From: Pseudomonadota bacterium
GTDB lineage: Bacteria > Pseudomonadota > Alphaproteobacteria > Sphingomonadales > Sphingomonadaceae
NCBI GenBank assembly: GCA_040388515.1
Contig: JAZKBQ010000004.1
Span: 182,382 to 246,381, forward strand
Direction: 5' to 3'
Length of the DNA stretch: 64,000 nt
Every line of letters begins with the position of its first letter. The first letter of the stretch is position 1. A program made the position numbers and the translations under genes. Below the pieces are notes generated by a model. The model was not told the DNA's origin. It did no database searches and worked only from the letters and a program-made list of their open reading frames with translations. This document shows positions 28,373-47,616 of this stretch, in pieces.

Positions 28373-28406
28373 CCAGACTTCTTTGCACGATCTGCAAATA
28401 AGTCGA

Positions 28407-30501: not shown

Positions 30502-31014
30502 ATGCGATTCGCGTTACTTGCAGCAGTGTCAGCGCTTGGGCTGAGCGTACCGGCATTTGCGGCCGTCACAGTCACTATAAATGCAAATGCCTACGGCACC
30601 TTCACGACTTACTGCACGGCCCAGACAACACAGTGCATGTCGCCACTCTTCCAAACCCCCTCAGGCAAATCGCTTTCGTACACGTTCAATGTTGCCTCGG
30701 TGACGGATGGCGGATCGTTTAGCTTCAATGATTTCAATGTCCCTCTGGGGCAAAATCCGGCCACGGTGTCCGGCCAATTCAAGCTTCAACCAGGAGGCGG
30801 CTACTCCGGCGTCAACCTTTCGTACTATCAGGACACCTACCGGTTCGGGGTTTCGCAATACACCGTGACCGATCTTCGCGCTCCTACATTCAGCGTCTCA
30901 TTCGCTGGCAATGTCCCGGAGCCTACGACTTGGGCCATGATGATCGGCGGCTTCGGAGCGATCGGTGCCGCGATGCGCTATCGCCGTCGCAAGGTCGCAG
31001 TCAGCTTCGCTTAG
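30502..31014 (+). CDS. Secreted PEP-CTERM (PEPxxWA variant) sorting-domain protein; prophage moron
   Basis: Signal peptide MRFALLAAVSALGLSVPAFA. C-terminus VPEPTTWAMMIGGFGAIGAAMRYRRRK combines a PEP motif, a TM helix and a basic tail. Visibly lower GC than its neighbours, with its own 107-nt upstream gap. Confidence 0.75.
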   Translation: MRFALLAAVSALGLSVPAFAAVTVTINANAYGTFTTYCTAQTTQCMSPLFQTPSGKSLSYTFNVASVTDGGSFSFNDFNVPLGQNPATVSGQFKLQPGGGYSGVNLSYYQDTYRFGVSQYTVTDLRAPTFSVSFAGNVPEPTTWAMMIGGFGAIGAAMRYRRRKVAVSFA

Positions 31015-33617
31015 GACGCAAGCTTCAGCTTGCACTGCTGCTGATAGCCCTGCGGACCCATAGGGCCGGTTCCACAGAAGAACCGGCCCGCCCGCAGGCG
31101 GCTGCCGACCATCTTGACCGGTCCGCCGGGGAAACCTCCGATGAACTTGCTTATGGCCACTGAGGTCGCGGCTTGCGCGGTCGCTTGGCTGGTCGGGTTG
31201 AAGTCCTCGCATTTGTAGAACCCGGCGTTCTCACAGAAGAAATAGATCGTCGGGAAGGTTTTGCCCGGTGCGGGTTTGCCCAGACAGAACGTCACGGGCT
31301 CGGCCGGCAGGTTCGTCAATGCAAACCATGCCGAGCCTCCGTTTAGCGAGCACAGGAAACGCCGCTCGGCCTCGTCCGCTGCTTCGTTGTCGCCTGGGCC
31401 GGTTACGTAGAGGTGCACGTTCGGAAAGCCGGTCACAACTTCCAGCTGGCAGTTGTAGTAATCGAAGTTGAGACCGTTGGGCGGGGTGAGCAGGTCCGAC
31501 AAGTTGCCCGCGCGCAGTCGGGTCGCGGTTTGAACTCCCGTCGTCATGTTGATTCGGATGCGCCAGTAGCCAGCGATTAGTGAGGCCGACGGGTCCTGCG
31601 CCCACACCTGAATATAGAAATCGCCGGGATTGTTCTTGTCGGCGACCAGGTGCTTCCGGTTGAAGCTGTAGACGTTGTACAGGTGCGCGTTATCGAATTC
31701 CGCGTTGATCGGCGCGCTTCCGAAGTCGACCTTCGCCCACGCTCCGAAATTGAAGCGGAACTGCGGCCGCCAGCTTCCGTCGACCGATTGGCCAGACACA
31801 ACTTCGGTTCCTGCATTGGAGATCGCCAGCACGCCCGCGGTGAAGCCCACGGTCGGTTGAGTGGCCGCGAGACTGTAGGCAACCGTGCGGGCAGACCGCG
31901 ACCAAACCTCACCTCCGGATCGCACGAACGCGGAATACTGCGGGTTGTCGATCGCGAAGTCGGCGTTGTTAGCGTGCGAAAACTGGGTGTCAGGATAGAC
32001 CTGCGTCGGAACGGCAAAGGTGCCGTCGGCAAGCTGCACGAACGACCACAGCGGGCGGTCATGGCACGCGCCGAGCACTTCCAGTTCATCGGGCGACAGC
32101 GCAATGCCAGCGCCGACCATGTTCTTGATCCCCTTGGCGAAGCCATACCACGTCGCCGCGGTCGCATCGGCGGGCGGATTCGTCTGACTGAAATACACGG
32201 ACACGCCATCGGGCAGGCACAGACGATTGTAATAGGGCATCCAAACCAGGCAGCCGTTCGCCATGTACTGGACCGAGGTGTAGCTGTTCGTAACCCAGTC
32301 GGCGTCTTCGATCAGGTTGACCGACTTGCCCCCGCCATAGTCAGCGGAAAGGTCGCTGAAGGTCAGCCCGCCGTCGGCCGAACCGCAGCGACGGCCAGCG
32401 CCATGTGCCGCAAAGACCTTGTTCCCATCGGAGTGGTGGCACGCGATACCAACGAGGCCGCCCGGAGCGGTGGACTTCGTAATGCTGCCAGCTGGCGCGT
32501 AGCGGTGCACCTCTGAAGGCACGGCAGTCGTCGAGAAGCTGGTCATCATCACGACGCCGGTCGCCGCGTGGACGTCAATATTCTGGACGGCAATCGGCGC
32601 GTTGTTTATCACGGTGACCGCGCCGGTGACGTTGTTGACCGAGAACAGCTTTGCGGTGCCTGGAGTGTGCACAAAATAACGGTTCATGCGGCCGGTCGCG
32701 CCATCGACGCCGGACGAGCGATCCCAGCACATGACCTTGGACGTGAAGGAGAAGGCGTTCTCGGTCGTCAGTCCGACGCCAGTCGGGTGCGCGCCGGACG
32801 TTCCGACCGCGTCGAACATCGATGCGAAGGTCGCGTCGGTCAGCAGCAGTGTGACAAGGTCGGAACCGGTGAAAGCGCCAGACGGCGGGGTGACGGTCCA
32901 ATACTTGATATCGGCATTGAAGTCGGTGCGAACCACGCCCGGCGTTCCTGGCGGGCCGACGAAGATTTTGCACGCCCGCTGCGCCGAGTTGGCCGTCTTT
33001 GAGCTGGCGCTGAAGCAGCCCGGCCGGTAGCAAAACGCCCGCGGAGCCGGGATTTCGGCCGCTCCAATCGTCGCCCAGGTTGTGCAACTGTCGTGCGTCA
33101 CGCGGACGCCTGCGGCATTTTCGGGACAGATCGCCAGCGTCGCCTTGCGCTGCGGATCGAAATCCATGCGCGTTGTCGCAACCATCCGGTCGTCGCGGTT
33201 CTTCGGCGTGAACGTCGAAAGATCGAGCCCGTGATTCGTGATCGTGACGAAGTCGGGCAGCTTGTTGAGGAAGCCCGGATAGCTGCTCTCGGTGTATGCG
33301 ACGAAGAGCTTGCCCATGCAGATCTGCGCCAGCGCCTGAACGCCCGACTGGTCGCACGCGGATATATCCCATGCCGCGATGTCATGGGCATTGCAGTCCG
33401 CAGCGACCATGTTGATGCCAGGAAGGCTGATGAGTTCCCAGCGTTCATCGGCGTATGCCATCTTCCGATACATCGGGGTCTGGTCGCTTGAGGTGTAAAG
33501 TTCCGGACGAGCGCGACCGCCTCGAGCGCGGATCATCCAACCGCCTGCCGGGATCTCGGGCCCGCCTGGAATCTGATCGAAGGCGCCTACCAGCGTGCCA
33601 TTGTTGAGCTGGATCAT
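31011..33617 (-). CDS. Large Cys-rich virion-associated protein (candidate tail spike / receptor-binding or depolymerase protein)
   Basis: ORF 31011..33767 trimmed to MIQLNNGTLVG (ATGA overlap with the upstream stop). 868 aa, last gene of the late operon. No confident family assignment by eye. Confidence 0.5.
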   Translation of the reverse strand: MIQLNNGTLVGAFDQIPGGPEIPAGGWMIRARGGRARPELYTSSDQTPMYRKMAYADERWELISLPGINMVAADCNAHDIAAWDISACDQSGVQALAQICMGKLFVAYTESSYPGFLNKLPDFVTITNHGLDLSTFTPKNRDDRMVATTRMDFDPQRKATLAICPENAAGVRVTHDSCTTWATIGAAEIPAPRAFCYRPGCFSASSKTANSAQRACKIFVGPPGTPGVVRTDFNADIKYWTVTPPSGAFTGSDLVTLLLTDATFASMFDAVGTSGAHPTGVGLTTENAFSFTSKVMCWDRSSGVDGATGRMNRYFVHTPGTAKLFSVNNVTGAVTVINNAPIAVQNIDVHAATGVVMMTSFSTTAVPSEVHRYAPAGSITKSTAPGGLVGIACHHSDGNKVFAAHGAGRRCGSADGGLTFSDLSADYGGGKSVNLIEDADWVTNSYTSVQYMANGCLVWMPYYNRLCLPDGVSVYFSQTNPPADATAATWYGFAKGIKNMVGAGIALSPDELEVLGACHDRPLWSFVQLADGTFAVPTQVYPDTQFSHANNADFAIDNPQYSAFVRSGGEVWSRSARTVAYSLAATQPTVGFTAGVLAISNAGTEVVSGQSVDGSWRPQFRFNFGAWAKVDFGSAPINAEFDNAHLYNVYSFNRKHLVADKNNPGDFYIQVWAQDPSASLIAGYWRIRINMTTGVQTATRLRAGNLSDLLTPPNGLNFDYYNCQLEVVTGFPNVHLYVTGPGDNEAADEAERRFLCSLNGGSAWFALTNLPAEPVTFCLGKPAPGKTFPTIYFFCENAGFYKCEDFNPTSQATAQAATSVAISKFIGGFPGGPVKMVGSRLRAGRFFCGTGPMGPQGYQQQCKLKLAS

Positions 33618-35269
33618 ATTCCTTCGTCTCCGTAGAGCGCGCCTGCTGGCTTCGTGAGGGTGCACTCGCCTGCAGTCGTGCGGATGCGAACGGCAGCGTC
33701 CCAGACAAGCGACGCGAAGAGAAAGTGCGACTTCGGCGACGCTGGTGCGGGCCGCCACGCGCCCCAACTTCCGTTTCGCCCGAAGCGGACCTGATGGTTC
33801 GGCTCGTCGTTATCGATTTGCCAAACGTCGCTGTTAGACCATGTGCCGATCGTGATCTCGTTCACACCCGTCGCGGATCCGCCCATCAGGACTGTCTGCG
33901 AATAGTTATTCAGGAACTCGAATCCGACTGCGGCACCCGAAGCTTGTGGCTTGGTCCCGACGGTGCCCCAGTCAGTGTAATCTTCCGACACGATGCCAAA
34001 CATGCTGGCGCCGTCGGGATCGATCACGCTCTTCGTGAACACCAACTCGTAATAGCGCCGCCCAGTCCGGTTCTGATTGACGCGGACGTTGCTGTAGCTG
34101 CCCGACGCGCCTGAATTCGTTCCCAGCTTGTTGCCCGCCGACAGCGCGATGTACGCGCTCTTCCGCGTCGCATCGAGGATGAGTGGGGCGGGTTCGAAAA
34201 GGTCACTGATGTTCCAGGTGAAAGCCTGGCGGAATTTCCGCCCGCTGAAATCGGTAAGGACGAACGTGATGCTGTACGCGGGTAGCGTTTCATAGTCGGG
34301 GCTGGTGACCAGCGTCGCGACCTTCGTCGTTTGATTGATCGAGACCAACCCGCCGTGGGTTCCTTCGGCCGAGAGGATTCCAGCCTTATTCGTGACCAGC
34401 TGGAAGGTTGGATTATCGTTGTTCTGACCAACGATTGTTTCGGGGGACGAGGTGCTGTTCGCCGATGTGATGAGTGGCGCAACCGGGTCATTCCATGCGT
34501 AGGTCGTCGTGTATGCCGAGATACGGACGCCGGCGCGCGCGACATAGAACCTGAAAAACCATGGAGCGCCCGTCGACAGGACTCCATATCCCAGCCCGGA
34601 AAGGGTCTGACCATTGGTGACGTTGCCGGGGATGGTGACGAAGCCGGGCGGCTGCACACCAGTCGCGAACGTGACGTCCTGCGACCACTCGGCATAGATG
34701 CGATCGCCTTCGGCCGCATAGCCCATGCCGGGCGACGGAGGACCGAATGTTGGTTCGAACACCGGAGGATTGGTTGCTGCAGGCGTACTGAGCGCCATCA
34801 GCGGCGCATCGACGAGGAGATTGACTGGCAACGGGAACGTGGGGGTGCCGCCCCCACTAGCTAAAGGGACAACAATCTCCGCTCCCAGGTCGTCGGTGAC
34901 GGCCACAGACCACACGAGCGATCGGTCTGGCTGCTGCGTGCCCACGATGCGGCGAGCCACCGCCGTACGGCCGCCGCTGAGCGCAGCATCACCGATCGCA
35001 AAGGCTGCGCGGCGTGAGATGCCCGTAATCTCGAGGCGCGTGATGCGCGTCTCGCCGTTCGGTGCGCGCTCGTTGACGACGAACGTATTGGAGCCATCGA
35101 AGGGCAGGGCAGGGTGGTCGAGGACGCCATTCAGGACGCCGCCACCCTGCGTGGTGGTGTCCGAACCGAGCGTGACTTCAGAGCCTGCTGTCAGGCCTGC
35201 GATCGCCGCCCGGAACGGGTAGCCCTGCACTCCGGTCGTAACGGCGAGCGTGAGCGCATTCAGGGCCAT
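33614..35269 (-). CDS. Tail-fibre-like protein with C-terminal SPRY/ConA-like lectin domain
   Basis: 551 aa. C-terminal RTGRRYYELVF...MFGIVSEDY...SDVWQIDNDEPNHQVRFGRNGSWGAW resembles SPRY/B30.2. Confidence 0.5.
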   Translation of the reverse strand: MALNALTLAVTTGVQGYPFRAAIAGLTAGSEVTLGSDTTTQGGGVLNGVLDHPALPFDGSNTFVVNERAPNGETRITRLEITGISRRAAFAIGDAALSGGRTAVARRIVGTQQPDRSLVWSVAVTDDLGAEIVVPLASGGGTPTFPLPVNLLVDAPLMALSTPAATNPPVFEPTFGPPSPGMGYAAEGDRIYAEWSQDVTFATGVQPPGFVTIPGNVTNGQTLSGLGYGVLSTGAPWFFRFYVARAGVRISAYTTTYAWNDPVAPLITSANSTSSPETIVGQNNDNPTFQLVTNKAGILSAEGTHGGLVSINQTTKVATLVTSPDYETLPAYSITFVLTDFSGRKFRQAFTWNISDLFEPAPLILDATRKSAYIALSAGNKLGTNSGASGSYSNVRVNQNRTGRRYYELVFTKSVIDPDGASMFGIVSEDYTDWGTVGTKPQASGAAVGFEFLNNYSQTVLMGGSATGVNEITIGTWSNSDVWQIDNDEPNHQVRFGRNGSWGAWRPAPASPKSHFLFASLVWDAAVRIRTTAGECTLTKPAGALYGDEGI

Positions 35270-35775: not shown

Positions 35776-36705
35776 TCAGATGTTGTCGCGGTAGCTCAGC
35801 GTCTTCGGACGATAGATCTCGAGCTGGCCGACGTTCATGATTCCGTCGACACGCCACGTCATCGACGAGGTCGCGAAGGGCTGCAGGAACTCGAACATGC
35901 CGGGCAGGAAGAACTCCATGTTGTCCGACGACTTCTCGTACGCGATCATGCGGTTCGTGCCCGAGGCACCTGCCGTCGCCAGTTCGCGGCTCGGACGGAT
36001 GTCGAGCGGCTGGCCGGTGATCGCGGTGTAGCTGTTGTTCTCCTTGAGGAACGTCAGCACCGTCTTGTCGGAACCCGAGCTTACCTGCGTGTTGTTCGCG
36101 TCCAAGAACTTCTGGGTCGGCAGCAGCAGGGCGTTGGCCTGTGCGGTTTCGCCCGAGTTGATGAAGACGTCGGTCAGCGCCGCATTCACGTCGGCGAGCT
36201 TCTGCGCCGGCGTCGCCGTGCCCCAGGTGCCCGTCGGCGCGTTCGCGGTCGGCACCGAAGCGTTGTTGATGAGACCGGTGAAGTTCTTGACGGTCGAGCC
36301 GCGAATGACGCGATCGTACACGAACTTCTCGGCGATCATGCGCGCGGCGGATGCTTTCTTGCCGTCGATCGCCACGCCCATCTTCGACGCACGGTTCACT
36401 TCCTGCAGGCTCAGCTCGTAGCCGACACCTGCGAGGTGGAAGCCGGTCGAACCCTGCGAGAGGTTGATCGACGCGTTCGGGATGTCGAAGCCCTTGCCGC
36501 CGATATAGTTGGCGACGCCAGCCAGATCGCCGGAATAGACCAGCGTACCCACATCCCACATGTCGCCATCGACATTGACGGGGACGAGACCGGCATAATC
36601 GAACGAAGGATACTTCGTCTCGAATACCGTGGTGTGAGTCCGATAGAGCGCCGGGATCGCAAAGCCTGCGGCCTGCTGGGCGTCGGTGAAAATCTTGCCG
36701 TTCAT
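35776..36705 (-). CDS. Major capsid protein (DUF2184-type, HK97 fold)
   Basis: 309 aa. Position follows the scaffold and cement genes. Sequence resembles the DUF2184 major capsid family. Confidence 0.75.
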   Translation of the reverse strand: MNGKIFTDAQQAAGFAIPALYRTHTTVFETKYPSFDYAGLVPVNVDGDMWDVGTLVYSGDLAGVANYIGGKGFDIPNASINLSQGSTGFHLAGVGYELSLQEVNRASKMGVAIDGKKASAARMIAEKFVYDRVIRGSTVKNFTGLINNASVPTANAPTGTWGTATPAQKLADVNAALTDVFINSGETAQANALLLPTQKFLDANNTQVSSGSDKTVLTFLKENNSYTAITGQPLDIRPSRELATAGASGTNRMIAYEKSSDNMEFFLPGMFEFLQPFATSSMTWRVDGIMNVGQLEIYRPKTLSYRDNI

Positions 36706-36720: not shown

Positions 36721-37176
36721 TTACTGCTGAACGACGCGGATCTTCACGGGGGCGCCGGAACTGACGGCCTCCATGAACGTCGCAGGAATTGCGGTGTTGC
36801 CGCCCGACACCGAGGTGAAGGCGCCGCCGGAGGTCACGTAGACCGCGGCGTCCTTCACGACGTTCGCGCCAGCCGTGACCCAGATGTCACCCTGATCGAG
36901 CAGCGACACGTTGGCGTACTGCGGATACACGTCGGCCGCGCCGCCGATCGGAGGAACGACGCCGGCGTCGGCGATCGTGATGCCCTTGAACTTGGTGCCA
37001 GGTGTCGCGGTGAAGCCCCGCTCGTTCGTGCCGCTGAATGCAGCCTTGCCGAATGCGATGCCGCCGGCATCTTCGACGGTGCCACTCGGGCGCGACTGCG
37101 TATTGCCGTCGGCAAGCATGCCCGGGAAGCCGCGGGTGTAGTCCGTCGCATAGGTGCTCTGGATCGTGATCGTCAT
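36721..37176 (-). CDS. Capsid cement/decoration protein (DUF2190-like)
   Basis: Trimmed to MTITIQSTYATDY (AAGGGGA RBS). 151 aa, between the scaffold and capsid genes. Confidence 0.55.
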   Translation of the reverse strand: MTITIQSTYATDYTRGFPGMLADGNTQSRPSGTVEDAGGIAFGKAAFSGTNERGFTATPGTKFKGITIADAGVVPPIGGAADVYPQYANVSLLDQGDIWVTAGANVVKDAAVYVTSGGAFTSVSGGNTAIPATFMEAVSSGAPVKIRVVQQ

Positions 37177-37189
37177 GTGCCCGGTCCCC

Positions 37190-38338
37190 TTACTGAGCCG
37201 CGGCGGAAGCGGGCTGCTTCCACGCGGTGGACAATGCTTGCTTGCGAGCGTCGCGCGCCGTCGCGTATTCGGCCTGCGCATCGCCGAGGATCTTCGGCAC
37301 GCCGATGTTGTGAACGGTGTCCGCGTCGTTGACCTTGGCGTCCTTGGTCAGCGTCTCGAATGAGACTGCCACCTGGTCCGCGGTCCAATCCTTGGCGGCA
37401 TCGCCGACCTTCGCATCGACAACGGCCTTCATGATTGCAGGCTCGTCCATGGCGTCCGTGACGGTCACGCCAAGCGCCTTCGCCTTGTCGACAACGACCG
37501 AATATGCCTTCGCAGCATCGCGGAGAGCCTGCGGGGTCAGCTTTGCGTCCTCGACCTGCTTGCCGAGCGTGACGATCTGGGCGTCGAGCGTGGCCTTGTC
37601 GGTCGTGAGGGTCGCAACCTGCGTCTCGAGGCCGGTCACCTTGGCGGTGGCAGCATCGCGGGCGGCGAGGATAGTCTTGATCGTCGCCTCAGCCGTGTCG
37701 GCGTTGGCGATGTCGACGGTCAGCCCGTCAATCAACATTGTCTTCACGGGCTTCTCCTTGGTGAGACTGTCAAAAATGAATGGCGGGGCGGAGTCGCAGA
37801 CGGCGATCGCGCAGGACTCGCCGGCGCGGCCGTTCTGGACGACAGCGACATGGTTGCCCCCGATGATCTTGGACTGCCGAGCCTGGCACACAGTGCCGTC
37901 AGCAGATTTGAAATCGCCGAATTCGAGCGATGCCTCGTATCCGTTTGACAGCTGACGCTTGCCGTCGCCGACCTTGGAAATGGCGGCTTCGTCGGTCAGC
38001 AACAGGTCGAATGCCAGATAATCGCCGTCGCGCATCGCGCCCATGACGACGCCGCGTGCATGGTCGCGCCAATTGGCGGAGGTGACCGGGTCGGCAGGAT
38101 GATCGTCGGTGACCGGCTTCCCGATGAACGATCGCGCTGCGGACGCATCGAACACAGTTGCGTCGTCGCGCAGCACGTTCACGATGGCTGTATCGCGCAG
38201 TCCGTGGGCGTTCTCGGGATCGACCTCGCGACCGGTATATTGATAGACGCCGGTACGTGCCGCCTTGGCGCGCACCGCCAGATATCCGTCCCTTGTACGG
38301 TGTGGCGCGTCGAGCGTGAGACGATCATGCATCAGCAT
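37190..38338 (-). CDS. DUF2213-type prohead protease/scaffolding protein
   Basis: 382 aa. DUF2213-like N-terminal half. Ala/Lys/Asp-rich coiled-coil C-terminal half typical of scaffolds. Confidence 0.65.
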   Translation of the reverse strand: MLMHDRLTLDAPHRTRDGYLAVRAKAARTGVYQYTGREVDPENAHGLRDTAIVNVLRDDATVFDASAARSFIGKPVTDDHPADPVTSANWRDHARGVVMGAMRDGDYLAFDLLLTDEAAISKVGDGKRQLSNGYEASLEFGDFKSADGTVCQARQSKIIGGNHVAVVQNGRAGESCAIAVCDSAPPFIFDSLTKEKPVKTMLIDGLTVDIANADTAEATIKTILAARDAATAKVTGLETQVATLTTDKATLDAQIVTLGKQVEDAKLTPQALRDAAKAYSVVVDKAKALGVTVTDAMDEPAIMKAVVDAKVGDAAKDWTADQVAVSFETLTKDAKVNDADTVHNIGVPKILGDAQAEYATARDARKQALSTAWKQPASAAAQ

Positions 38339-38575: not shown

Positions 38576-39376
38576 TCAGTCGAATCGCAGAACGGCCCGT
38601 GATGTGCAACCACAGTACGGCAACTGGCCGGGCAAATCCTCGGGTGCGGTGGCGTCAGTGTAAATCATGCCATTGCGGGCGACATGGTTGGCGCGGGGAT
38701 GCTTCTTCCCCGAGTGCCGCCATTCCCAGCTATCGATGCCAGCCTCGCGGCGGCGTTCCTGATCGAGCGCCGCCGAGATCTTGATCATCTGGTCGCTGGC
38801 GATATTGAGCGCGCGGCGACGGCCCATGTCGACCGATTCCCTGATCTCCTTCGCAACATCCCGCGCCGATCGGCGTTCGGTCAGGCCGCGAAATACGGCG
38901 TCGGAGATCCTGCTACGGATCTGATCGCTCACCGACTTCACCAGCGCGACGTTGCGCTCGATCACGGCGCCCAAGGTTTCGCGGACGTCGCTCGCACCGA
39001 TAATGGTCCGGATGTCGACACCTGTCGCCGACAACACAGCGCCCCGCCATTTGCCGCGGTGCCATAGCTCGGTCAGGATCGCCCAGCGGTTGAGGGCAGG
39101 GCGCAGCGTCAGAAACAGCCGCATGAACTCGCCGTCGGCACCGTCGAGCTCGCGACCAAGGTCTGCCGCCGAATCCGTGACAAGCGCCGAAAGACTCCGC
39201 TCATATTCCGCTATCGCGCGATCAGCGGCGTGCGACCACAGAGTGATCACCGGCGCGTAAGCGGCGTGATACAGCCCCGTCGCCTGCACGCCAGTCGGTT
39301 GGATCGGGCGGAGGGTGATGCGTGACCGCTGCGGATTGCGCTCGCGACGAACGATCTGCGCGAGGTTGAACGACAC
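38576..39376 (-). CDS. Head morphogenesis protein (Mu gpF / SPP1 gp7 family)
   Basis: 266 aa, follows the portal gene. C-terminal WEWRHSGKKHPRANHVARNG...PGQLPYCGC motif of Phage_Mu_F. Confidence 0.8.
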   Translation of the reverse strand: MSFNLAQIVRRERNPQRSRITLRPIQPTGVQATGLYHAAYAPVITLWSHAADRAIAEYERSLSALVTDSAADLGRELDGADGEFMRLFLTLRPALNRWAILTELWHRGKWRGAVLSATGVDIRTIIGASDVRETLGAVIERNVALVKSVSDQIRSRISDAVFRGLTERRSARDVAKEIRESVDMGRRRALNIASDQMIKISAALDQERRREAGIDSWEWRHSGKKHPRANHVARNGMIYTDATAPEDLPGQLPYCGCTSRAVLRFD

Positions 39377-39377
39377 G

Positions 39378-41285
39378 CTACTTCTCGGTCAGGCGGGTCG
39401 CCCAGTCGTCGTCGACTTCTTCGAACATCTCGGGGCCGAAGCGCAGTTCGCCGCGGTATGGCTCAACCTTCGCCAGGTCGACGCCGGCGCCCTTATACGT
39501 GATTGTGACATGCGGCTGATACTCGGGGTAGTCTGAGGTCGCGCCCGCCTCGATCATCGCCTCGCGTCGGTACGCCAGCGCCGAAGAGTTGAACAGGAGC
39601 ACGACCGCGCCCTTATCACCCAGGGGTTCGACGATGCGCGCGCCGCCAGGAACGATGGTCAGGCCGCCCTTGTCATCGCTGTGCCAGTCCTGTCCGACCT
39701 TCATCCAGTCGATCTGGGTGCGTGAGTGGATGATTGTGACGTGCAACTCGTTTGCTGGCGTCGTCGTCTCGAACCCTTGCGACTTCGCCCAGGCGATGAA
39801 GTCCTTCGCGTTCAGCAGATTGCGGCGGACGTACAGCGATCGCGGTGCGGCGTCGGTCGTGCTGACCGGTGCACCCGGCTTACGCGGCGGCTGCGTCGGA
39901 TCCTGTTCGTTGCCGGGCTTCGGTGTGGCCTCGAGGTCGGCTTCATCAGGCTGCAACTCCCCGAAACGCTCATCTTCGGGGATTTCCTCGAGCGCATCTT
40001 CGAGCGCGGGCAGCATGGCCTCGTCGGTCAGCCACGACTGCACGCCCTTCGTCAGCGCGACGTCGGGTACGGTGGCAGTTGCCTGCACCTTGGTTACCGC
40101 GTCCATAAACGTGTTGAAGCGCGTCGCCTTCTCGGCAGGCGTTTCCTGATCGAGCGGCGCGAACTGATACCAGATCGACGGATCCACGCTGCCGAGCGCC
40201 GATCCGAGCAGGTAGGGGTCGATGCGATCGAGGCAGGGCGAGAGGTCGAGCGTCTGCTTTGCGCCGACCATCTTGTTCCAGTCGCGCTGCTGGCTGTTGC
40301 CGCTCGAGTTCATGCCTTCCGGGGCGGTGCCGAACAGGCGCGACTGCGGGATATCGCTGACCGCGCTGGCGAACATGGCGAAGCACATGATGATGTCCTT
40401 CGCGCCGGCGAAATTGTACTGCGCATCGGTGATCTCCTCGCCGATCTGACCATCGCCCTTGTCGTAGACGGTCGCGCTGAAGATGCTCTCGGCCATCTGA
40501 AAGGCGGCCATGCGGCGCTGGAACGACGCTTCGCCGGCGGTGTCGGCCACGGTCGCAAGCAGGTTCGGGATGCCGATGCGCGTGTTGCGCGCCTTCTGGA
40601 TGAGCGCGGCGAACGATTGGCGCGCGGAATCGCAATCCTCGACCGCATCGATGACCTGCGCGACACGGCTCTCCCCCCAGAACGCATTGTCGAGCGTGCT
40701 GAACAGGAGCACGGGCGGAGGATCGCCGCGGAAGGGAATGACGCGGCTGGGGTGGATATCGATCTGGCTGCTCTTGGTCTGGATCTTCCACATGACCGGC
40801 TCGCCGAAGCCCGCCTGGGTGGCATCGTCCTGCAACTCGCTGAACTGCAAGTGCTGGCGGCTGACGACGTTGATGTAGGCGAGCTTGCCCGTGCCCACCT
40901 TCTCCGGGGCAGGCGTGTTCGGCTGGCCGGGCAATCCGAGGATGAGAGCACCGCCACCGCAGCCGCGCATGACCTCGACCTGCCGGATCTTCTGGGGCAA
41001 CTGCAGCCGCTTCTCCTCGGCCTCGATCTTCTCGATCTGAGCGGAGTTCGCTTTCCAAAGCCGCCACTCGCGCACCATGTCCTCGGCGGGGATCTTGATG
41101 ATCTTGCGCATCAGCCCGGACGATGAATAGGCCGCAGCGATCTGCATCGGGTCATACGCCCGCATGGCATAGATGTTCGCCAGCCGCGGATCACGCATCG
41201 TGCCCATGCCGGTGATGGCATTGGTCAGCGAATCCTGGACGAAGCTATCCTTCAGCCGGACATTGGTGAGGCGGCCACCGCTCAC
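39378..41285 (-). CDS. Portal protein (DUF1073-type) fused to a C-terminal 2H-phosphoesterase-like domain
   Basis: 635 aa. The N-terminal ~435 aa are portal-like, followed by an acidic/Pro-rich linker. The C-terminal ~145 aa carry two HVTI tetrapeptides 77 residues apart. Confidence 0.75.
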   Translation of the reverse strand: MSGGRLTNVRLKDSFVQDSLTNAITGMGTMRDPRLANIYAMRAYDPMQIAAAYSSSGLMRKIIKIPAEDMVREWRLWKANSAQIEKIEAEEKRLQLPQKIRQVEVMRGCGGGALILGLPGQPNTPAPEKVGTGKLAYINVVSRQHLQFSELQDDATQAGFGEPVMWKIQTKSSQIDIHPSRVIPFRGDPPPVLLFSTLDNAFWGESRVAQVIDAVEDCDSARQSFAALIQKARNTRIGIPNLLATVADTAGEASFQRRMAAFQMAESIFSATVYDKGDGQIGEEITDAQYNFAGAKDIIMCFAMFASAVSDIPQSRLFGTAPEGMNSSGNSQQRDWNKMVGAKQTLDLSPCLDRIDPYLLGSALGSVDPSIWYQFAPLDQETPAEKATRFNTFMDAVTKVQATATVPDVALTKGVQSWLTDEAMLPALEDALEEIPEDERFGELQPDEADLEATPKPGNEQDPTQPPRKPGAPVSTTDAAPRSLYVRRNLLNAKDFIAWAKSQGFETTTPANELHVTIIHSRTQIDWMKVGQDWHSDDKGGLTIVPGGARIVEPLGDKGAVVLLFNSSALAYRREAMIEAGATSDYPEYQPHVTITYKGAGVDLAKVEPYRGELRFGPEMFEEVDDDWATRLTEK

Positions 41286-41868: not shown

Positions 41869-42185
41869 GACTTTGCCTCCACAGGTTTGCCGCCGACCTC
41901 GGCCAGATTGACGTCGGAAGTTCCGTCCTTGCCGCCTGGCGGGGTCGCATTGATCGCGGTCGAGATCGCGTCCAACGCGGCGCCAGTGTTGTTGGCACGC
42001 TGCTCGTCGACCTTGTCGGTCCGGAACACGCCTTGGACGGCGACCGCGAGGCTCGTGCCGAGCGCGCCGATTCCGCCATCGACGATGCGCTGGGCGGTCT
42101 CGTTGATGTTGGCGAACATCGCGAGGCCCAGCAGCACCATGAAACCGATCGCCAGGACCGACGCGAGGATGATACGGCCGTTCAC
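41865..42185 (-). CDS. N-terminally anchored membrane protein (i-spanin candidate)
   Basis: 106 aa with a single N-terminal TM helix (IILASVLAIGFMVLLGLAMF). Follows the endolysin gene. Confidence 0.5.
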   Translation of the reverse strand: MNGRIILASVLAIGFMVLLGLAMFANINETAQRIVDGGIGALGTSLAVAVQGVFRTDKVDEQRANNTGAALDAISTAINATPPGGKDGTSDVNLAEVGGKPVEAKS

Positions 42186-42727
42186 AGCGACACCCGATTG
42201 CGCAGCCAGCCGAACACGAAGTCCTCATTGGCGACGCGGCCTCGCGCCAGCTGCTTGTAGCGGGCGCCCTGGTCGGCGTTCAGCCCCAGCAGCATCACGC
42301 GATCGGCTTCGGCTGCGCCACGCTTCGCACGCAGGGCGCGGAAGGCGTTCAGTGTTCCGAGCCCGATATCGCCGTCTTCCTTGATGTCGGCATAGTCGCG
42401 GCCCTGCTGGTTGAGGGCGTTCAGCCACTCCTGAAACCAGCGCGCCGGAACGTCGGGGCCCATGTTCACGCCCGTGTCGAACAACTCCTCGCCGACCGCG
42501 GGGCTGATCGCGGCCACAGCAGCAAAGCCGGGCTTGATGGCGAACTCCTGCCGATAGATCGCGACAGCCTTTTCGCGAGGCAGCTCGCGCATATCGCCCG
42601 CGTAACCGTTGCGTCGCGCGACCGCCTGCGTGACGCCCCAACGCGTCGGACCGCCGCGATCCGAAGGATGGTCGGAATAGCCGCCCTCCTTGCCGATTGT
42701 TGCCTCGATCATGCTGTCGATGCTCAT
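42182..42727 (-). CDS. Endolysin, glycoside hydrolase family 108 with PG_binding_3 domain
   Basis: Trimmed to MSIDSMIEATIGKEGGYSDHPSDRGGPTRWGVT, the GH108 signature. ATGA overlap with the upstream gene. Confidence 0.85.
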   Translation of the reverse strand: MSIDSMIEATIGKEGGYSDHPSDRGGPTRWGVTQAVARRNGYAGDMRELPREKAVAIYRQEFAIKPGFAAVAAISPAVGEELFDTGVNMGPDVPARWFQEWLNALNQQGRDYADIKEDGDIGLGTLNAFRALRAKRGAAEADRVMLLGLNADQGARYKQLARGRVANEDFVFGWLRNRVSL

Positions 42728-42999
42728 AGCTTGTCCCTCAGCCGCTCGATCTGATGCGCGACCTCGCTCAGGGCGCCTGTATTGGCGCGCAGGTCCTCGC
42801 TGTTCGTGCGCAGCCGTTCGGACAGCGTCGTCATGGATACGTTTTCCATCAGCACGCCCCCGACAAATGCCGTTGGTTCGACGGGCTTTTCTTTCCGCAG
42901 CGTCTTGATGCCTTGCCATACGCCAGCGACCGCAAGGCCGATGGTGGTGAGGACAATTCCGATCCCGGTGGCGATCGATTGAACATCAGCCGACCCCAC
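42724..42999 (-). CDS. Single-TM protein with C-terminal coiled coil (holin/antiholin candidate)
   Basis: GTG 42999. TM helix IATGIGIVLTTIGLAVAGVW. Immediately upstream of the endolysin gene. Confidence 0.45.
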   Translation of the reverse strand: MGSADVQSIATGIGIVLTTIGLAVAGVWQGIKTLRKEKPVEPTAFVGGVLMENVSMTTLSERLRTNSEDLRANTGALSEVAHQIERLRDKL

Positions 43000-43722: not shown

Positions 43723-44790
43723 TCAGTTCTGCTTCACGATGTAGATATCGGAGCCTTCGCGCAGGATCGTGCCCTGCGCGTTCGTCGCATTCTGCCCCCA
43801 TTCGAGCGTCAGGAAGCCCGGTACTGCACCCATCTTGAGCGTGCCGTCGAGGTTCGTGCGGAACTTGCCGACGGCCAGTGTCAGCACCTGGATAGAGGCT
43901 AGGCCGAAGATCGCGACGGTCGGTGCCGAACTGAGGGGACCGACCTCGAGCTCGGGCAATCCGGACACCGTGGCGAGCGCGGCGCCCTGTGCGTCCAGCA
44001 CGCGCAGCTGGTACCGGAAACCGGCCAACGCATTCTGGCTCTGGTACCGCAGATACATCGCGATGTGATATATCCCGCCAGCCTCGACAGGCACGACGAG
44101 GTCGGGATCCGCAACGAGCGCGTTTGAAACGCGGGTCGTGTCGGCCAGCTTGGGAATGCGGCGCTGACGCTTGAGCGGGATCGTCGGAGCGCTGCCGACG
44201 CCCGGCCATCCCGTGGAAGGATCGACAGCCTGAACACCGGCGGAATTGATCGCGGCATCGATGGCGGCCAACTTGGTGTTCGCGTTCGCCTTGCAGGCTT
44301 CGATGAAGGCGACGACCGTCTTCTGCGTCACAGCGACTTCGTCGGCGGTGTGCGCCGCGTATGATCCGGCCTGCATCATCACGTTGTATGCGGCCGGCGC
44401 GGCGACGGTGTTGACGGCGTTGATCATGTTCGTCGCCTGGCCGTCGAGCTGGTTCCGGTTGAACTCGTCGGTCGCGACCACACCCTTCGAACCCATGACG
44501 CCCGCAGCCATGGCGGTAGCGAGTGCCGAGTTCACCAGCGCCTTCCGCGCGGCCTTCTCATCGGCAAGGCTCGTCGCGGTGACGTAGCTCGATCCGTTCC
44601 AGCTGTGGGATGCGAGATAGGCGGCGGTGTAATACTTGAAGCCGCGCGTTGACGCATCCCAATAGGCGAGCGTCGGATATCCGAGCACAGCGGTAATTGC
44701 GGTCCGACCAGCCACCTCGGCGGGTTTTTCAGCAACGGGGGTCGGTGAGACGAGCGCGCCAGTCGCATTGATGTACGTAAGCCAGCCCAT
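43723..44790 (-). CDS. Tail-associated protein (fibre/accessory), function unknown
   Basis: 355 aa, directly after the host-specificity gene. Confidence 0.5.
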   Translation of the reverse strand: MGWLTYINATGALVSPTPVAEKPAEVAGRTAITAVLGYPTLAYWDASTRGFKYYTAAYLASHSWNGSSYVTATSLADEKAARKALVNSALATAMAAGVMGSKGVVATDEFNRNQLDGQATNMINAVNTVAAPAAYNVMMQAGSYAAHTADEVAVTQKTVVAFIEACKANANTKLAAIDAAINSAGVQAVDPSTGWPGVGSAPTIPLKRQRRIPKLADTTRVSNALVADPDLVVPVEAGGIYHIAMYLRYQSQNALAGFRYQLRVLDAQGAALATVSGLPELEVGPLSSAPTVAIFGLASIQVLTLAVGKFRTNLDGTLKMGAVPGFLTLEWGQNATNAQGTILREGSDIYIVKQN

Positions 44791-47198
44791 CAGCTGAGCC
44801 TGACGAAATAGGACTTGTCGGGCTTGAACGTGCCCGATCCGCCGACCTCTGCGACCTGCACGTCGTACGTCTGGGTGACGCCCGACGAGTTCGTGAAGCT
44901 GCCGGTCACGGTCTGCTGCGTCGGATCGGGCGGGCTGTAGCCATCGCCAAGCGAGGTGCCGCCGGTCATAGCCGACCAGGAGCCCGACATCGCTAGGCCG
45001 AACTGCAGTTCGATCTGGAAGGTCAGGCCGGGGGTAGCCGTTGGATCATAGCGGCCGCGCGCAGTGAAACTCGCGGTCTGACCCGCAGCCAGCGTGACCT
45101 GTCCAACGACACCATAGGTATACGTCCCCAGCGAAGCACCGTCGGCGCCGTCCTTGGTCTTTCCGACGCTCTTCATGCCGACGATCCCGTCGCCGGTTGC
45201 GATCGCGACGACGCCGGTCGCACCTGCGTTCACGGCGATCGCCGCAATGAAGTTTGCGGTCGACATCGTGACGCTCGAGCCAGTGGTCGCTGAGAGATAG
45301 GTGGCGGGCGTCAGCGTGTTCCCGAGGTTGTCCTTGAGGGTCCAGGCAATCGCCCCGCTGATGTTTTGTGCGTTGGCCGTGAACACGATGTCCTGCGATG
45401 CCGGCGCGGCCGCGTTAGCACCGTTGAAGGTTACCTGCTCGCGGTTCGCGTTGACCACGATCGTCTTCGCATCATCGCCGCTATCGCCTACCTTCGCGCG
45501 AAGTTGCCAGTTGGTGTTGGAGGTGGTCGGCAGGGCTGGCGGGCCATTCAGGCCGTTCGATAGATGGTTCGTGCGCGATCCCCAAGTTGAGCCATCCTTC
45601 TGCACCTCATCGCCGATGACGTAGTTCACGGCGCTCGCCCAATCGCCGCGGTCGACGTTGCGGGTCTTGTCGTCGATCGAGACGATGATCGGATTGAGGC
45701 CCTGGTCGTATGTCGTCGGCGCCGCCGCTACCACAGCAGGGCTTTCCTCGGCATCCCACAGATAGATATCTGAGTGTTCGACGCGCAGGAGCAGCGGTAC
45801 GCGGCCATCGGTCCCGTTGTCGGCCTCGATAACGCGGAAGAGCTTGTTGACCCAACCAAGCGGCGGGAAGGTGAACGTGATCACGTCGTTCTTCTGCACA
45901 CGCCAGCCGGTGATCTGGAACGTGACGGGGATCGTGCCACCGTATTGCTGGCGCTGTAGCCGCGTCTTTGCGAGGCGCTGACACTGCGAAGGGCTTTCGA
46001 CAAACGGAAGCGGGAACGTGTCGGCGCGTTCGATGCCGTCGATCGAAGCCAACTCGACCTGCGGATAGTCAGGCTGCTGATAGAGGCTGTTTGCGCTTGC
46101 GTCGGTGTACGTGCCGCGCACGACATTGAACCGTTGATCGAGGTCGACAGTCGGGTTGAACTCTCCGATCTCAAGGACGTCGTCGGCGGTGAAGGCGGCC
46201 ACCGGCGTCGCAAGGTCATTGTGGATGACCGTGGGGCCTAGGCCGCCGCCGAAGTCGTCGAACTCGGCGTTCATGCACTTCTTGATCTCGTCGATCACCG
46301 TGCGGCGCGCGATGCCTTCGGACCAGATGCCGTCGCAGCGATACCGTGGCTCGGTACCGCCAACGGCCTTCGTCACCGGCTCGTCGCACATGTTGGCAGC
46401 CGTGATGAACTTCGAGAGCAGCAGCCGACTGAGGGGGATGCCGCAGCCGACCGCCAGGATGCCGTTGATCCGCCAGCCGATGCAATAATTCAGGAGCGCG
46501 AGCGCGGGATTGCGGCAGGCGTCATCGCTCCATTCCCACGTAGTCTGGTCGTTGATGCGCTGCGGTCCGGACCCGCCGGCAACGGTGCTGTCGCGACGCG
46601 GGTCGTAGAAATAGGCGCCGTCTCCGATAATCGTCACGCGCGTCGGAATCGATTGCGCGAACGGGCTATCAGTGTTGCTGCTGTTCCCCGTCAGCTTGTA
46701 TTTGAAGTGGACGTAAGCGCAGCCGGTGAACCGCCGTGAAGCACCGAGACGTGGACTGATATTGATCGCGTTGCCGGCGCTGCCCTCGAGGATCGGCGTC
46801 ACGTCGAGGTATCCGACGTATTTGCCCTGTACCCCGCCCGCGAGCGTCCATGCCTGCACGTCGTCGAACCAAATCTCGCGGATGGCGTGCACCTTGTGCG
46901 AGGCGGCGACAATGAAGCGGTGGAAATACGCCTGGTCGGCCGAATATTCCTGATCGCGAATGTCGGTGGCCATCGCCGTCGTACCGACCACCGTCTTTCG
47001 CGGCGTTCGCGGGTCGATGCTGGCATTCAGTCGCTCGATCGTCTCGAGATTGATCTTGGTTTGGGTAGCCGGCGCACTCTTTGCGGATAGCAGCGACGCG
47101 CCAACGCTGGCCGCCGCCACAGCGATCGTGGACACGAGCACGCTCGCGCCGAGAACCTTGGCGCCCACGGCTACGACGAGAGGGATCACCTGAGGCAT
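44790..47198 (-). CDS. Host-specificity / central tail fibre protein (lambda J, GTA g15-like)
   Basis: 802 aa, follows the NlpC/P60 gene. Size and position match J-like proteins. Confidence 0.7.
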   Translation of the reverse strand: MPQVIPLVVAVGAKVLGASVLVSTIAVAAASVGASLLSAKSAPATQTKINLETIERLNASIDPRTPRKTVVGTTAMATDIRDQEYSADQAYFHRFIVAASHKVHAIREIWFDDVQAWTLAGGVQGKYVGYLDVTPILEGSAGNAINISPRLGASRRFTGCAYVHFKYKLTGNSSNTDSPFAQSIPTRVTIIGDGAYFYDPRRDSTVAGGSGPQRINDQTTWEWSDDACRNPALALLNYCIGWRINGILAVGCGIPLSRLLLSKFITAANMCDEPVTKAVGGTEPRYRCDGIWSEGIARRTVIDEIKKCMNAEFDDFGGGLGPTVIHNDLATPVAAFTADDVLEIGEFNPTVDLDQRFNVVRGTYTDASANSLYQQPDYPQVELASIDGIERADTFPLPFVESPSQCQRLAKTRLQRQQYGGTIPVTFQITGWRVQKNDVITFTFPPLGWVNKLFRVIEADNGTDGRVPLLLRVEHSDIYLWDAEESPAVVAAAPTTYDQGLNPIIVSIDDKTRNVDRGDWASAVNYVIGDEVQKDGSTWGSRTNHLSNGLNGPPALPTTSNTNWQLRAKVGDSGDDAKTIVVNANREQVTFNGANAAAPASQDIVFTANAQNISGAIAWTLKDNLGNTLTPATYLSATTGSSVTMSTANFIAAIAVNAGATGVVAIATGDGIVGMKSVGKTKDGADGASLGTYTYGVVGQVTLAAGQTASFTARGRYDPTATPGLTFQIELQFGLAMSGSWSAMTGGTSLGDGYSPPDPTQQTVTGSFTNSSGVTQTYDVQVAEVGGSGTFKPDKSYFVRLS

Positions 47199-47199
47199 G

Positions 47200-47616
47200 T
47201 CAGCCGACTCCCCAGCCGCGTTCCCACATGGCCATAGGTCGACGCACGAGGCCCGCCTCGCCGATCAGCAGCGCGTCAGCGCCAACGACGACACCGACAG
47301 CGCCGTCACGGTCTTTACCGACCATCACGAGATCGCCGCGTCGCAAGTTGCCGATCGGGCGGCGCGGCAGGAACATGTCGAACGTGCGCGTGATCGTGCC
47401 GCCGCCGAAATCGCGCAGCGCTTTCGCGGCTCCCGCTGCATCGCTGTACTTGCCTCGAAACTTCGTGCCGTGGTCGACGCCGGTCTCGGCCGCTACGACG
47501 TCCGCACCCCAGAGCGCGCAGTCGTGCACGCCCCAGTCGAGCGGCGTCGTCCAACGCGCGGCGATGAGCGCGTTGAGCGGCGTTTCCCAGTCGGAAAGGC
47601 GGACAAGCGGCTGCAT
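47200..47616 (-). CDS. Tail-associated NlpC/P60-type cell-wall peptidase (lambda K / GTA g14 position)
   Basis: 138 aa. WGVHDCALWGADVV contains the catalytic-Cys context. Confidence 0.65.
   Translation of the reverse strand: MQPLVRLSDWETPLNALIAARWTTPLDWGVHDCALWGADVVAAETGVDHGTKFRGKYSDAAGAAKALRDFGGGTITRTFDMFLPRRPIGNLRRGDLVMVGKDRDGAVGVVVGADALLIGEAGLVRRPMAMWERGWGVG

Follow-up and report, generated by a model that had tools for sequence, protein, structure and literature searches.

Acb1 cleaves cyclic nucleotides in a metal-independent manner via a 2',3'-cyclic phosphate intermediate, and its catalytic tetrad consists of H44, T46, H113 and T115 (Hobbs et al. 2022, PMC9117128). In the Acb1 of Erwinia phage FBB1 the residues Y12, W74, F107 and W147 are the base-stacking aromatics, the last of them located in a C-terminal lid (PMC9117128). 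This enzyme (7T26/7T27) and the product of T4 gene 57B are free proteins of ~150 aa, and the text describing them contains neither 'portal' nor 'fused' (PMC9117128). Fusions of 2H phosphoesterases to portal and MuF domains were described by Iyer et al. (2017, PMC5512222; 2022, PMC9503650), who hypothesised that the 2H domains enter the host by injection after head packaging and there oppose signalling based on nucleotides; an RNase role was also weighed in 2017 (PMC5512222). Their statements come from comparative genomics, made before or without an Acb1 family assignment, and the arrangement they describe is exactly that of the window analysed here (the whole stretch of 64,000 nucleotides).

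The closest system with a structure is the gp3 portal of Pam3 (8HDS), which is dodecameric in the virion (Yang et al. 2023, PMC9942802). With 621 aa and an Acb1-like domain at aa 472-617, this portal is built from the same two domains as the protein studied here. More broadly, T4 Alt, T4 IPI*, P1 DarA/DarB and the MuF-toxin fusions share with it the concept of an anti-host enzyme that a head-assembly protein or a targeting sequence brings into the capsid, so that it is at hand when infection starts. Among these, T4 Alt is the classic example of an enzyme packaged in the head and injected, and for Alt and IPI* it is established that they are packaged, processed by proteolysis and injected (PMC5512222), whereas a portal-tethered Acb1 is predicted cargo whose portal carrier is not itself ejected. 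We consider that the protein encoded in the window may be such a packaged anti-CBASS enzyme, with injection as the most speculative step, and give this explanation as a whole a probability of about 0.6.

A portal gene with a C-terminal extension in a prophage head cluster

The gene is complete, lies on the reverse strand at 39378..41285, and encodes 635 aa from a GTG start to a stop codon at 39378-39380, as determined from the ORF list and translation; M1 is near-invariant among 60 aligned full-length homologues. It belongs to a prophage and encodes a portal protein. Pfam matches and the structural model divide the product into three parts, a DUF1073/Phage_portal_3 portal, a disordered linker and a C-terminal Acb1 domain. 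The portal domain (aa 48-399; 40089..41144, reverse strand) is matched by PF06381 with 311.6 bits and an E-value of 7.1e-93 (gathering cut-off 33.8 bits), and PHROG 146, annotated 'portal protein', matches at E 5e-111. In the NCBIfam search the portal part had only a sub-threshold match to TIGR01555 and the C-terminal domain had none. When the full-length AF2 model was compared with known structures using Foldseek, the Pam3 portal 8HDS was the best match (E 1.8e-22, target-normalised TM 0.70), followed by the portals of E217, T1, FCWL1 and Pa193, in keeping with a portal fold of clip, stem, wing and crown.

The portal gene sits in a head-morphogenesis cluster. The start codon of a gene for a MuF-like minor head protein (38576..39376, reverse strand; PF04233 Phage_Mu_F, E 5e-12; PHROG 324 'head morphogenesis') is one base beyond the portal stop codon, and on the same strand there follow a DUF2213 protein (37190..38338; PF09979, E 9e-51), a capsid cement protein of the E217 gp24/Pam3 gp6 type (36721..37281; PF22758, E 3.5e-27) and the major capsid protein (35776..36705; PF09950, E 1.2e-76). 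The DUF2213 protein may act in head maturation as a protease, or else as a scaffold; the protease role is kept as a candidate because PHROG 530 names it 'head maturation protease' (E 9e-68) and the record of its Pam3 homologue says 'head scaffold protein'. The large terminase subunit (55456-56925) is encoded in the same prophage but is not adjacent to the portal gene. Pam3 has the same module order, of portal (gp3), MuF-like minor capsid protein (gp4), DUF2213, cement and PF09950 capsid protein, although it is a lytic cyanophage, the sequence here is from a prophage in a probable sphingomonad, and overall portal identity is 31%. An exact-sequence search for the portal in public assemblies gave no match, and a contig scan with the full protein, whose patterns were too specific, gave no relative confirmed by tblastn. 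The host is taken to be probably a sphingomonad because the homologues' organisms are Novosphingobium, Blastomonas, Sphingorhabdus and Allopontixanthobacter. PADLOC, applied to 10 ORFs of the window including the portal gene, matched no cyclic-nucleotide defence system.

An acidic, proline-rich and probably flexible linker occupies aa ~435-482 (39840..39983, reverse strand), as judged from its composition, with 14 D/E and 10 P per 54 residues, and from the full-length AF2 model, in which pLDDT is below 50 across aa 450-478. Linkers of 60 homologues are 30-89 aa long (median about 54) with 23% D/E and 12% P, and are poorly conserved save at both ends. The motif DAxP(R/K)xLYV at the linker/domain boundary was considered as a site for a maturation protease and rejected, as it also starts the standalone homologues P0070 and P0007. 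Since standalone proteins such as P0070 begin with it, this motif looks like a part of the domain fold rather than a processing site.

An earlier note on this DNA, made from the letters alone, had described a 635-aa DUF1073-type portal with an extra C-terminal domain behind an acidic, proline-rich linker at aa ~436-482. The PF06381 and PF23474 matches and the residue counts bear out this description, and the fusion partner is a genuine portal, of a kind that is dodecameric in the homologous Pam3 virion (PMC9942802).

The C-terminal domain belongs to the Acb1 family

The C-terminal domain extends over aa 483-635 (39381..39839, reverse strand) and was assigned to the Acb1 family of 2H phosphoesterases using PF23474, phmmer, AF2, Foldseek and tblastn. 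PF23474 (Acb1; gathering cut-off 27 bits) covers aa 483-630 and profile positions 2-143 of 144, with 132.8-136.4 bits and E-values of 7.5e-40 to 9.7e-39, so that the sequence match is far beyond chance. Phmmer matched the domain to the FBB1 Acb1 chain 7T26 (E 9.7e-11), with both catalytic histidines and the lid tryptophan aligned, and to the C-terminus (aa 472-617) of the Pam3 portal (E 7e-31), and T4-type gene 57B homologues were reached directly from the domain sequence by tblastn. The AF2 model of the domain (pLDDT 93.2, pTM 0.86) has 7T26/7T27 as its top Foldseek matches (E 1.4e-9, TM 0.73-0.80), followed by the phosphodiesterase of phage BCSR5 and only later by LigT, and its BFVD matches carry the name Acb1.

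The first catalytic HxT is H515-V516-T517 (39735..39743, reverse strand), found in the context NELHVTIIHSR and aligned with the first catalytic histidine of FBB1 Acb1. The second is H592-V593-T594 (39504..39512, reverse strand), which is found in YQPHVTITYKG and aligns with the 'YRPHITLSY' motif of that enzyme. The only further HxT/S of the protein is an HPS at aa 178, within the portal domain. W628 (39402..39404, reverse strand) aligns with the C-terminal tryptophan of FBB1 Acb1 and is the candidate lid tryptophan. The domain shares with the T4 and FBB1 enzymes the 2H fold, the HxT/HxT tetrad and PF23474, and probably the C-terminal lid, whose candidate tryptophan is conserved; it differs from FBB1 Acb1 in a 7-residue insertion between two central strands. 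The catalytic histidines are 70 residues apart in the FBB1 PDB chain versus 69 as published, which leaves the offset ambiguous for mapping Y12 and W74.

Conservation was assessed in 144 related representatives of 50%-identity clusters. H515 was kept in 144/144, T517 in 142/144, H592 in 143/144 and T594 (as T or S) in 143/144, and R550 and R573 were kept in all 144; the catalytic residues and both arginines are also invariant in 60 full-length fusions. The position of W628 is W in 97 of the 115 representatives ungapped there, and is near-invariant in fused homologues. The Y-P-x-Y-x-P-H aromatic motif (Y586, Y589) is conserved, as are W499 and W527. These alignments indicate that the tetrad and the aromatics are under strong purifying selection. 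The domain is therefore hard to picture as an exapted, inactive fold which organises or retains DNA above the portal crown in the manner of a barrel or plug, as 144 diverged representatives, which include unrelated fusion partners, keep the tetrad almost perfectly. Some portals do bear DNA-contacting barrel extensions at this location, and the domain is missing from the Pam3 map, but an acidic linker is unfavourable to DNA binding, and most DUF1073 portals do without the domain (35/932 phage records have it); we regard a purely structural role as very improbable.

A role in RNA-end healing is suggested by membership of the 2H superfamily, in which a LigT-like 2',3'-cyclic phosphodiesterase/2'-5' ligase would repair or process RNAs cut by anticodon nucleases of the host or by toxin RNases, and would leave signalling nucleotides alone. 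Like the domain, E. coli LigT and its relatives (5LDM, 4QAK) have a 2H fold with two HxT/S motifs, LigT is a significant structural neighbour, an RNase role was among those considered by Iyer et al. 2017 (PMC5512222), and homologues are called 'RNA ligase' in PHROG 755 and in many GenBank records. These labels, however, are older than the discovery of Acb1. LigT is also a much weaker match to the domain (TM ~0.55-0.62, 12% identity), and LigT-type enzymes, which process cellular RNA, are larger and do not have the Acb1 lid. The LigT-type Pfam models stay below their gathering cut-offs, PF13563 2_5_RNA_ligase2 with 15.4-19.8 bits (E 8e-4; cut-off 27) and PF02834 LigT_PEase with 13.6 bits (E 0.08; cut-off 23.3), so that the Acb1 model leads them by ~115 bits, just as Acb1 structures outrank LigT, and the candidate lid tryptophan, a feature specific to Acb1, is conserved along with the aromatics. 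No RNA ligase or KptA partner was found among ~30 ORFs of the window scanned with Pfam, and according to Iyer et al. RNA ligases never associate with this 2H clade (PMC5512222). RNA-end healing is thus an improbable function, and on sequence and predicted structure the domain is very probably an active Acb1-family phosphodiesterase.

These results agree with the earlier proposal of a 2H phosphoesterase-like domain and narrow it to the Acb1 family, as indicated by the sequence, the predicted fold and the conserved HxT/HxT tetrad; the Foldseek comparison of an AlphaFold model, which had been suggested as a check, recovered a 2H fold with Acb1 structures ranking first. Re-translation reproduced the codons given for His515 (39741-39743) and His592 (39510-39512) and their distance of 77 residues. 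It also placed aa 483 at 39837-39839 and aa 635 at 39381-39383, so of the interval 39405-39839 the domain start at 39839 stands, but the end at 39405 (aa 627) is too short, as the domain includes W628 and reaches the stop codon.

Distribution, fusion partners and annotation

The earlier note had held that this was not a standard described arrangement, and that view is not sustained. PF06381 and PF23474 occur together in 120/120 of the closest full-length relatives, the fusion is found in about 35 cultured phage records and in the databases, and it was published in 2017 and 2022. The fusion itself is already known, and this locus is a diverged further instance and not a new principle, with the nearest relatives among the matches listed ≤58% identical to it. 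Cultured phages with the fusion include Pam3, the phiPSA1 group and RHEph04-06. A survey of DUF1073 portals, also proposed beforehand, found the Acb1 extension in only 35 of 932 phage records with such a portal. The portal-Acb1 fusion is ancient and widespread.

The same records bear on whether adjacent portal and standalone Acb1 genes could have been joined by a sequencing or assembly error. Split versions do exist in public data, namely in Synechococcus phage Yong-M3-232 and as fragmented ORFs on a JGI contig, but these are explained by a 127-bp duplication and by an indel-rich assembly, respectively. The architecture is continuous in all 120 closest relatives, which come from independent genomes and metagenomes, as well as in the ~35 cultured phage records and the deposited Pam3 portal sequence, and the fusion is almost certainly not an artefact. 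The subfamily does have genuinely free members, such as P0070 (150 aa, 32 contigs). P0001, P0002 and P0007 were considered as close free homologues; P0002 was rejected, as its contig appears to be rich in indels and the portal gene before it is split there into small ORFs.

Fusion partners were counted in the best 150 of 1,974 cluster representatives. The DUF1073 portal is the partner in ~97 of these 150 (94 detected by phmmer with the N-terminal domain of the portal studied here and 3 more by Pfam). Among the same best 150 of 1,974, other portals were Portal_Mu (6), HK97-type Phage_portal (4) and lambda-type portal (2), and the remaining partners included the prohead proteases S78_2 (6), S78 (1) and DUF2213 (2), and MuF (3); the families listed for this set include none that serve as tail, terminase or lysis proteins. 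The partners of the Acb1 subfamily thus comprise four families of portals, three of prohead proteases, and MuF, and each is a prohead-interior protein. Furthermore, in 28 portals of the best 150 of 1,974 the chain continues past the Acb1 domain, with Alt-like ADP-ribosyltransferases (10 + 6), a PBECR3 RNase or a Zeta toxin; in relatives of this portal an Alt-like ART can thus follow Acb1.

Names in the databases vary. The fusion is already part of PHROG 146, and NCBI and UniProt name portal-Acb1 proteins 'anti-CBASS protein Acb1'. Such inconsistent labels ('portal protein', 'DUF1073', 'RNA ligase', 'anti-CBASS protein Acb1 family protein') can distort counts of both Acb1 and portals in surveys. 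In the literature that could be searched, no experimental study of a portal-fused Acb1 was found.

Packaging and delivery

In a portal protein the C-terminus (crown/barrel) points into the capsid, and the ring is stable and remains with the capsid. In the proposed mechanism, the C-terminus on the interior face of the ring would lead through a disordered acidic linker of ~48 residues into the Acb1 domain, and this tether would load up to 12 copies as capsid-internal cargo, a step suggested by the fusion partners. As these partners are all prohead-interior proteins, they support capsid packaging, and it is rather likely that the domain is physically packaged in the head. Twelve copies per virion would be a small enzyme dose, and this was counted against the proposal. 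By analogy with the Acb1 mechanism, the domain would cleave 3'-5'-linked cyclic di- and trinucleotide alarm signals such as 3'3'-cGAMP, cA3 and similar molecules. Immune cyclic oligonucleotides are its probable substrates; the substrate range is not readable from the sequence, identity to the characterised Acb1 enzymes being only 26-30%. Host defences of the CBASS type, and possibly others that depend on cyclic oligonucleotides, would be disarmed by such cleavage.

The most speculative step is the release of the domain, for example by cleavage of the linker at head maturation, and its exit with the DNA, which would place the enzyme in the next host ahead of any phage gene expression. Because the portal does not leave the capsid, the tethered domain would have to be cut off and ejected to reach the next host. 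The Pam3 portal model (8HDS) holds 442 of 621 residues, without the Acb1 domain, and the domain model does not match it; the missing density fits flexibility, cleavage or loss equally well. We know of no cleavage site in portal-Acb1 proteins and of no ejection mechanism for portal C-terminal domains. Delivery into the next cell is accordingly a tentative proposal, somewhat against the odds, and it is rather unlikely, if conceivable, that the portal C-terminus serves as a general dock for injected counter-defence enzymes, from which Acb1 would be clipped, then kept above the crown until it left the particle together with the DNA or before it.

The want of a known cleavage or ejection mechanism speaks for a different timing, in which a catalytic amount of Acb1 is made alongside the head proteins and, on free portal subunits or assembling proheads, degrades CBASS signals in the producing cell, the encapsidated copies being a dead end. 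CBASS activation has been linked to late virion assembly, and the genes in which escape mutations lie encode the prohead protease, the capsid and tail fibres (bioRxiv 10.1101/2023.05.21.541620); an enzyme co-translated with head proteins would therefore be correctly timed. T4 Acb1 works as a soluble protein in the cytoplasm (PMC9117128), and in Yong-M3-232 the domain has been uncoupled from the portal by the 127-bp duplication with the phage apparently not lost. Co-expression alone, however, predicts that any late protein could be a partner, whereas the partner families listed among the best 150 of 1,974 representatives all sit inside the prohead, and the same scaffold bears cargo of a typically injected sort, namely Alt-like ADP-ribosyltransferases and RNases of the toxin type (PMC5512222). 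We therefore consider action confined to the producing cell unlikely, though it deserves attention, and prefer the reading of a portal-tethered Acb1 that is packaged and perhaps injected.

If the tethered enzyme does travel into the host with the genome, phages would pre-empt cyclic-nucleotide immunity (CBASS, and possibly type III CRISPR that uses cA3) without gene expression, and the timing of cyclic-nucleotide defences would need a new interpretation. If demonstrated, it would be the first virion-delivered anti-CBASS enzyme, an idea already predicted by Iyer et al. (2017, 2022), and portals would, besides MuF and internal proteins, serve as cargo carriers.

An Acb1-type domain at the C-terminus of the portal protein

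The portal gene (39378-41285, minus strand; 635 codons in the ORF list) encodes a portal part at aa 48-399 (Pfam PF06381, Phage_portal_3, formerly DUF1073; E 7e-93), an acidic, proline-rich linker of ~48 residues that is predicted to be disordered (pLDDT <50 across aa 450-478 of the full-length model), and an enzyme domain placed by profile at aa 483-630 (PF23474, Anti-CBASS protein Acb1). The PF23474 match covered nearly the whole profile and scored 133 bits (threshold 27); Pfam's generic models for LigT and 2'-5' RNA ligase fell below their own thresholds. Re-translation places the His515 codon at 39741-39743 within NELHVTIIH and the His592 codon at 39510-39512 within QPHVTITY, 77 residues apart, exactly as the earlier note gave them. 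The interval it assigned to the domain ended eight residues short: W628 belongs to the domain, which reaches the stop codon. Modelled at full length (pLDDT 86), the protein matched portal structures in Foldseek, the best being that of cyanophage Pam3 (8HDS; E 2e-22), followed by E217, T1, FCWL1 and Pa193.

Sequence, predicted structure and selection independently identify the C-terminal domain as an Acb1-family 2H phosphodiesterase. A phmmer search of PDB sequences found chain 7T26 of the FBB1 Acb1 crystal structure (E 1e-10), in an alignment that pairs both catalytic histidines and the C-terminal tryptophan. A tblastn search with the domain alone extended to hundreds of T-even-like phages, where it matched homologues of T4-type gene 57B. 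The structure search proposed with the original 2H assignment supports it: the AlphaFold2 model of the domain (50 homologues as input; pLDDT 93, pTM 0.86) was closest by Foldseek to the two Acb1 crystal structures (TM 0.73-0.80), then to a phage BCSR5 phosphodiesterase and then to E. coli LigT, and the best named matches in a viral predicted-structure library were 'Anti-CBASS protein Acb1'. Of 144 representatives of 50%-identity clusters, all 144 retain H515, R550 and R573, 143 retain H592, 143 have T or S at T594 and 142 retain T517; the aromatic positions are likewise kept. The same catalytic, arginine and aromatic residues are invariant across 60 full-length fusions. Such near-perfect conservation of catalytic residues disfavours a purely structural role.

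Hobbs et al. (PMC9117128) define Acb1 by four features. As far as can be checked in silico, the domain has the 2H fold and the HxT/HxT tetrad, and it carries candidate counterparts of the other two: conserved aromatic positions for the base-stacking residues and the aligned tryptophan W628 for the C-terminal lid. By analogy with Acb1 it would cleave 3'-5'-linked cyclic di- and trinucleotides independently of metal, via a 2',3'-cyclic phosphate intermediate (PMC9117128). Healing of RNA ends by a LigT-like enzyme is disfavoured on three grounds: the gap between the Acb1 and LigT model scores, the ranking of Acb1 structures ahead of LigT, and the finding that none of the scanned ORFs of the window encodes an RNA ligase.

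Distribution and annotation of the fusion

The portal-Acb1 fusion is common. PF06381 and PF23474 occur together in all 120 of the best full-length homologues (50-58% identity; independent genomes and metagenomes). An assembly artefact is excluded, since genomes, phages and metagenomes independent of one another share the architecture. In the survey of portal extensions suggested earlier, 932 GenBank phage records had a related portal, and in 35 of them the match extends over 80% or more of the query and hence includes the domain. This set comprises Synechococcus phages, the Pseudomonas syringae phiPSA1 group, Rhizobium phages RHEph04-06 and relatives, a Sinorhizobium phage, Pam3 and Aminobacter phage Erebus. 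PHROG 146 ('portal protein') likewise has the Acb1 domain built into its profile, which aligns to aa 14-629. An exhaustive search with the domain over 1.84 billion cluster representatives gave 1,974 matches at E <= 1e-3.

The earlier note did not regard this as a standard described arrangement, which is contradicted by this prevalence, by existing annotation (NCBI and UniProt name the architecture 'anti-CBASS protein Acb1 (family protein)') and by Iyer et al. (PMC5512222; PMC9503650), who described 2H-phosphoesterase fusions to portal or MuF domains and predicted that the enzymes travel inside the head, are injected and act against nucleotide-based signalling of the host. The words 'portal' and 'fused' are absent from the Acb1 discovery paper (PMC9117128), and targeted literature searches found no experimental study of a portal-Acb1 fusion. 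Public names for the one architecture also include 'portal protein', 'putative head protein', 'DUF1073 domain-containing protein', 'phage-related protein (TIGR01555 family)' and 'hypothetical protein', and standalone homologues are often labelled 'RNA ligase'. Such inconsistent naming can mask either function, portal or Acb1.

Synechococcus phage Yong-M3-232 (OM868076.1, 158-2144) encodes the portal and the Acb1 domain in two CDSs that overlap, and the nearly identical phage Ssp-JY40 (PP438430.1, 489-2348) has one fused CDS of 619 aa. The two sequences differ by a single indel, a 127-bp tandem duplication over the linker and first domain strand, which shifts the frame and leaves a 183-aa linker-plus-Acb1 ORF in Yong-M3-232. 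This split is either a genuine uncoupled variant or an assembly artefact.

Prophage context

The element carrying the gene is a prophage. Host-type genes (TonB-dependent receptor, sugar kinase, MFS transporter, glycosidase) extend up to ~21 kb of the window, and the right side holds terminase, DnaB, tape-measure, tail-fibre and GH108 endolysin genes; the nearest portal relatives are from Sphingomonadales. Downstream of the portal on the minus strand lie a MuF-like minor head protein (38576-39376), one base from the portal gene, a DUF2213 protein labelled head maturation protease by PHROGs (37190-38338), an E217/Pam3-type cement protein (36721-37281) and the major capsid protein (35776-36705; PF09950). 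Together with the portal these four head genes match the Pam3 head module gene for gene.

Across 35776-56925 (minus strand) the modules stand in an unusual order. It runs from the large terminase (55456-56925) through small ORFs, the tape-measure gene (49327-51708) and the genes for distal tail and tail fibre (43723-49327) to the GH108 endolysin (42182-42919). The head module comes after the lysis genes, which leaves ~14 kb between terminase and portal. Directly downstream of the capsid gene are two long minus-strand ORFs of 918 aa (31011-33767) and 551 aa (33614-35269), which overlap by ~150 nt, making their exact starts uncertain. Neither had a Pfam, PHROG or PADLOC match; both are candidates for uncharacterised proteins of the virion or of accessory function. 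The region 21399-29203 looks like the accessory end of the prophage, with an N6/N4 DNA methylase (21875-23155), an HTH regulator (23152-23703) and a SRAP/SOS-response-associated peptidase (28565-29203); it adjoins the host MFS transporter (18206-19474) and glycosidase (19597-21207) genes. No tRNA genes were found in the whole 64-kb window, and none of the ORFs scanned was recognised as an integrase.

Fusion partners and location of the enzyme

On mechanism, the fusion partners provide the most informative new evidence. Within the best 150 of the 1,974 domain matches, every carrier found is a prohead-interior protein, drawn from four portal families, three families of maturation protease, and MuF. 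A search with the N-terminal domain of the query portal placed a DUF1073 portal in 94, to which Pfam adds 3; the other portals are Mu (6), HK97-type (4) and lambda-type (2), and the proteases S78_2 (6), S78 (1) and DUF2213 (2). No tail, terminase or lysis partner was present among the families identified in these 150. The main rival explanation is that the enzyme acts late, in the virion-producing cell, and virion assembly reportedly triggers CBASS (bioRxiv 10.1101/2023.05.21.541620). If late co-expression were all that was needed, this partner bias would not be expected, so the selected property is most simply to be inside the capsid.

Twenty-eight of the 150 are DUF1073 portal-Acb1 proteins of 700-1469 aa that extend into a third module (for example, relatives P0100, P0107, P0124 and P0160). 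The modules include ADPrib_exo_Tox (10), ART (6), PBECR3 nuclease/RNase (2), Zeta toxin (1) and an FAD/pyridine-nucleotide oxidoreductase (1). It seems that the portal C-terminus serves generally to carry effector domains. The co-fused Alt-like ADP-ribosyltransferases likewise indicate placement in the capsid interior.

We put the probability that the domain is packaged in the head at roughly 65%; its delivery into the next cell is less likely than not. Portal topology rules against the earlier suggestion of a domain at the DNA 'exit', poised to act on the host, because the C-terminus of the portal points into the capsid and the portal remains there. To enter the host, the domain would need to be clipped from the portal and then ejected. 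The deposited Pam3 portal sequence (8HDS chain A, 621 aa) has an Acb1-like domain at aa 472-617. The structure paper does not mention it (PMC9942802), and a solved virion structure thus holds an unnoticed anti-defence enzyme domain. The Pam3 portal model comprises 442 of the 621 residues and was not matched by our domain model in Foldseek, and the unmodelled domain fits flexibility, cleavage or loss equally well.

A motif, D-A-x-P-(R/K)-x-L-Y-V, lies directly before or at the start of the Acb1 domain (39840-39860, aa 476-482) here and in homologues, outside the Pfam profile match. In portal fusions D478 is invariant and A479, P481 and R482 are kept at 90% or more. It was considered as a processing site and is not evidence of one, because standalone homologues (e.g. 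P0070 and P0007) also open with the motif, in the shorter form A-x-P-(K/R)-T-L-Y-V, which has no leading Asp.

The protein is a new and fairly diverged addition (at most 58% identity to any relative found) to a known, annotated class, with a predicted mode of action. It is of moderate interest, chiefly because cultured relatives allow packaging and injection to be tested directly.
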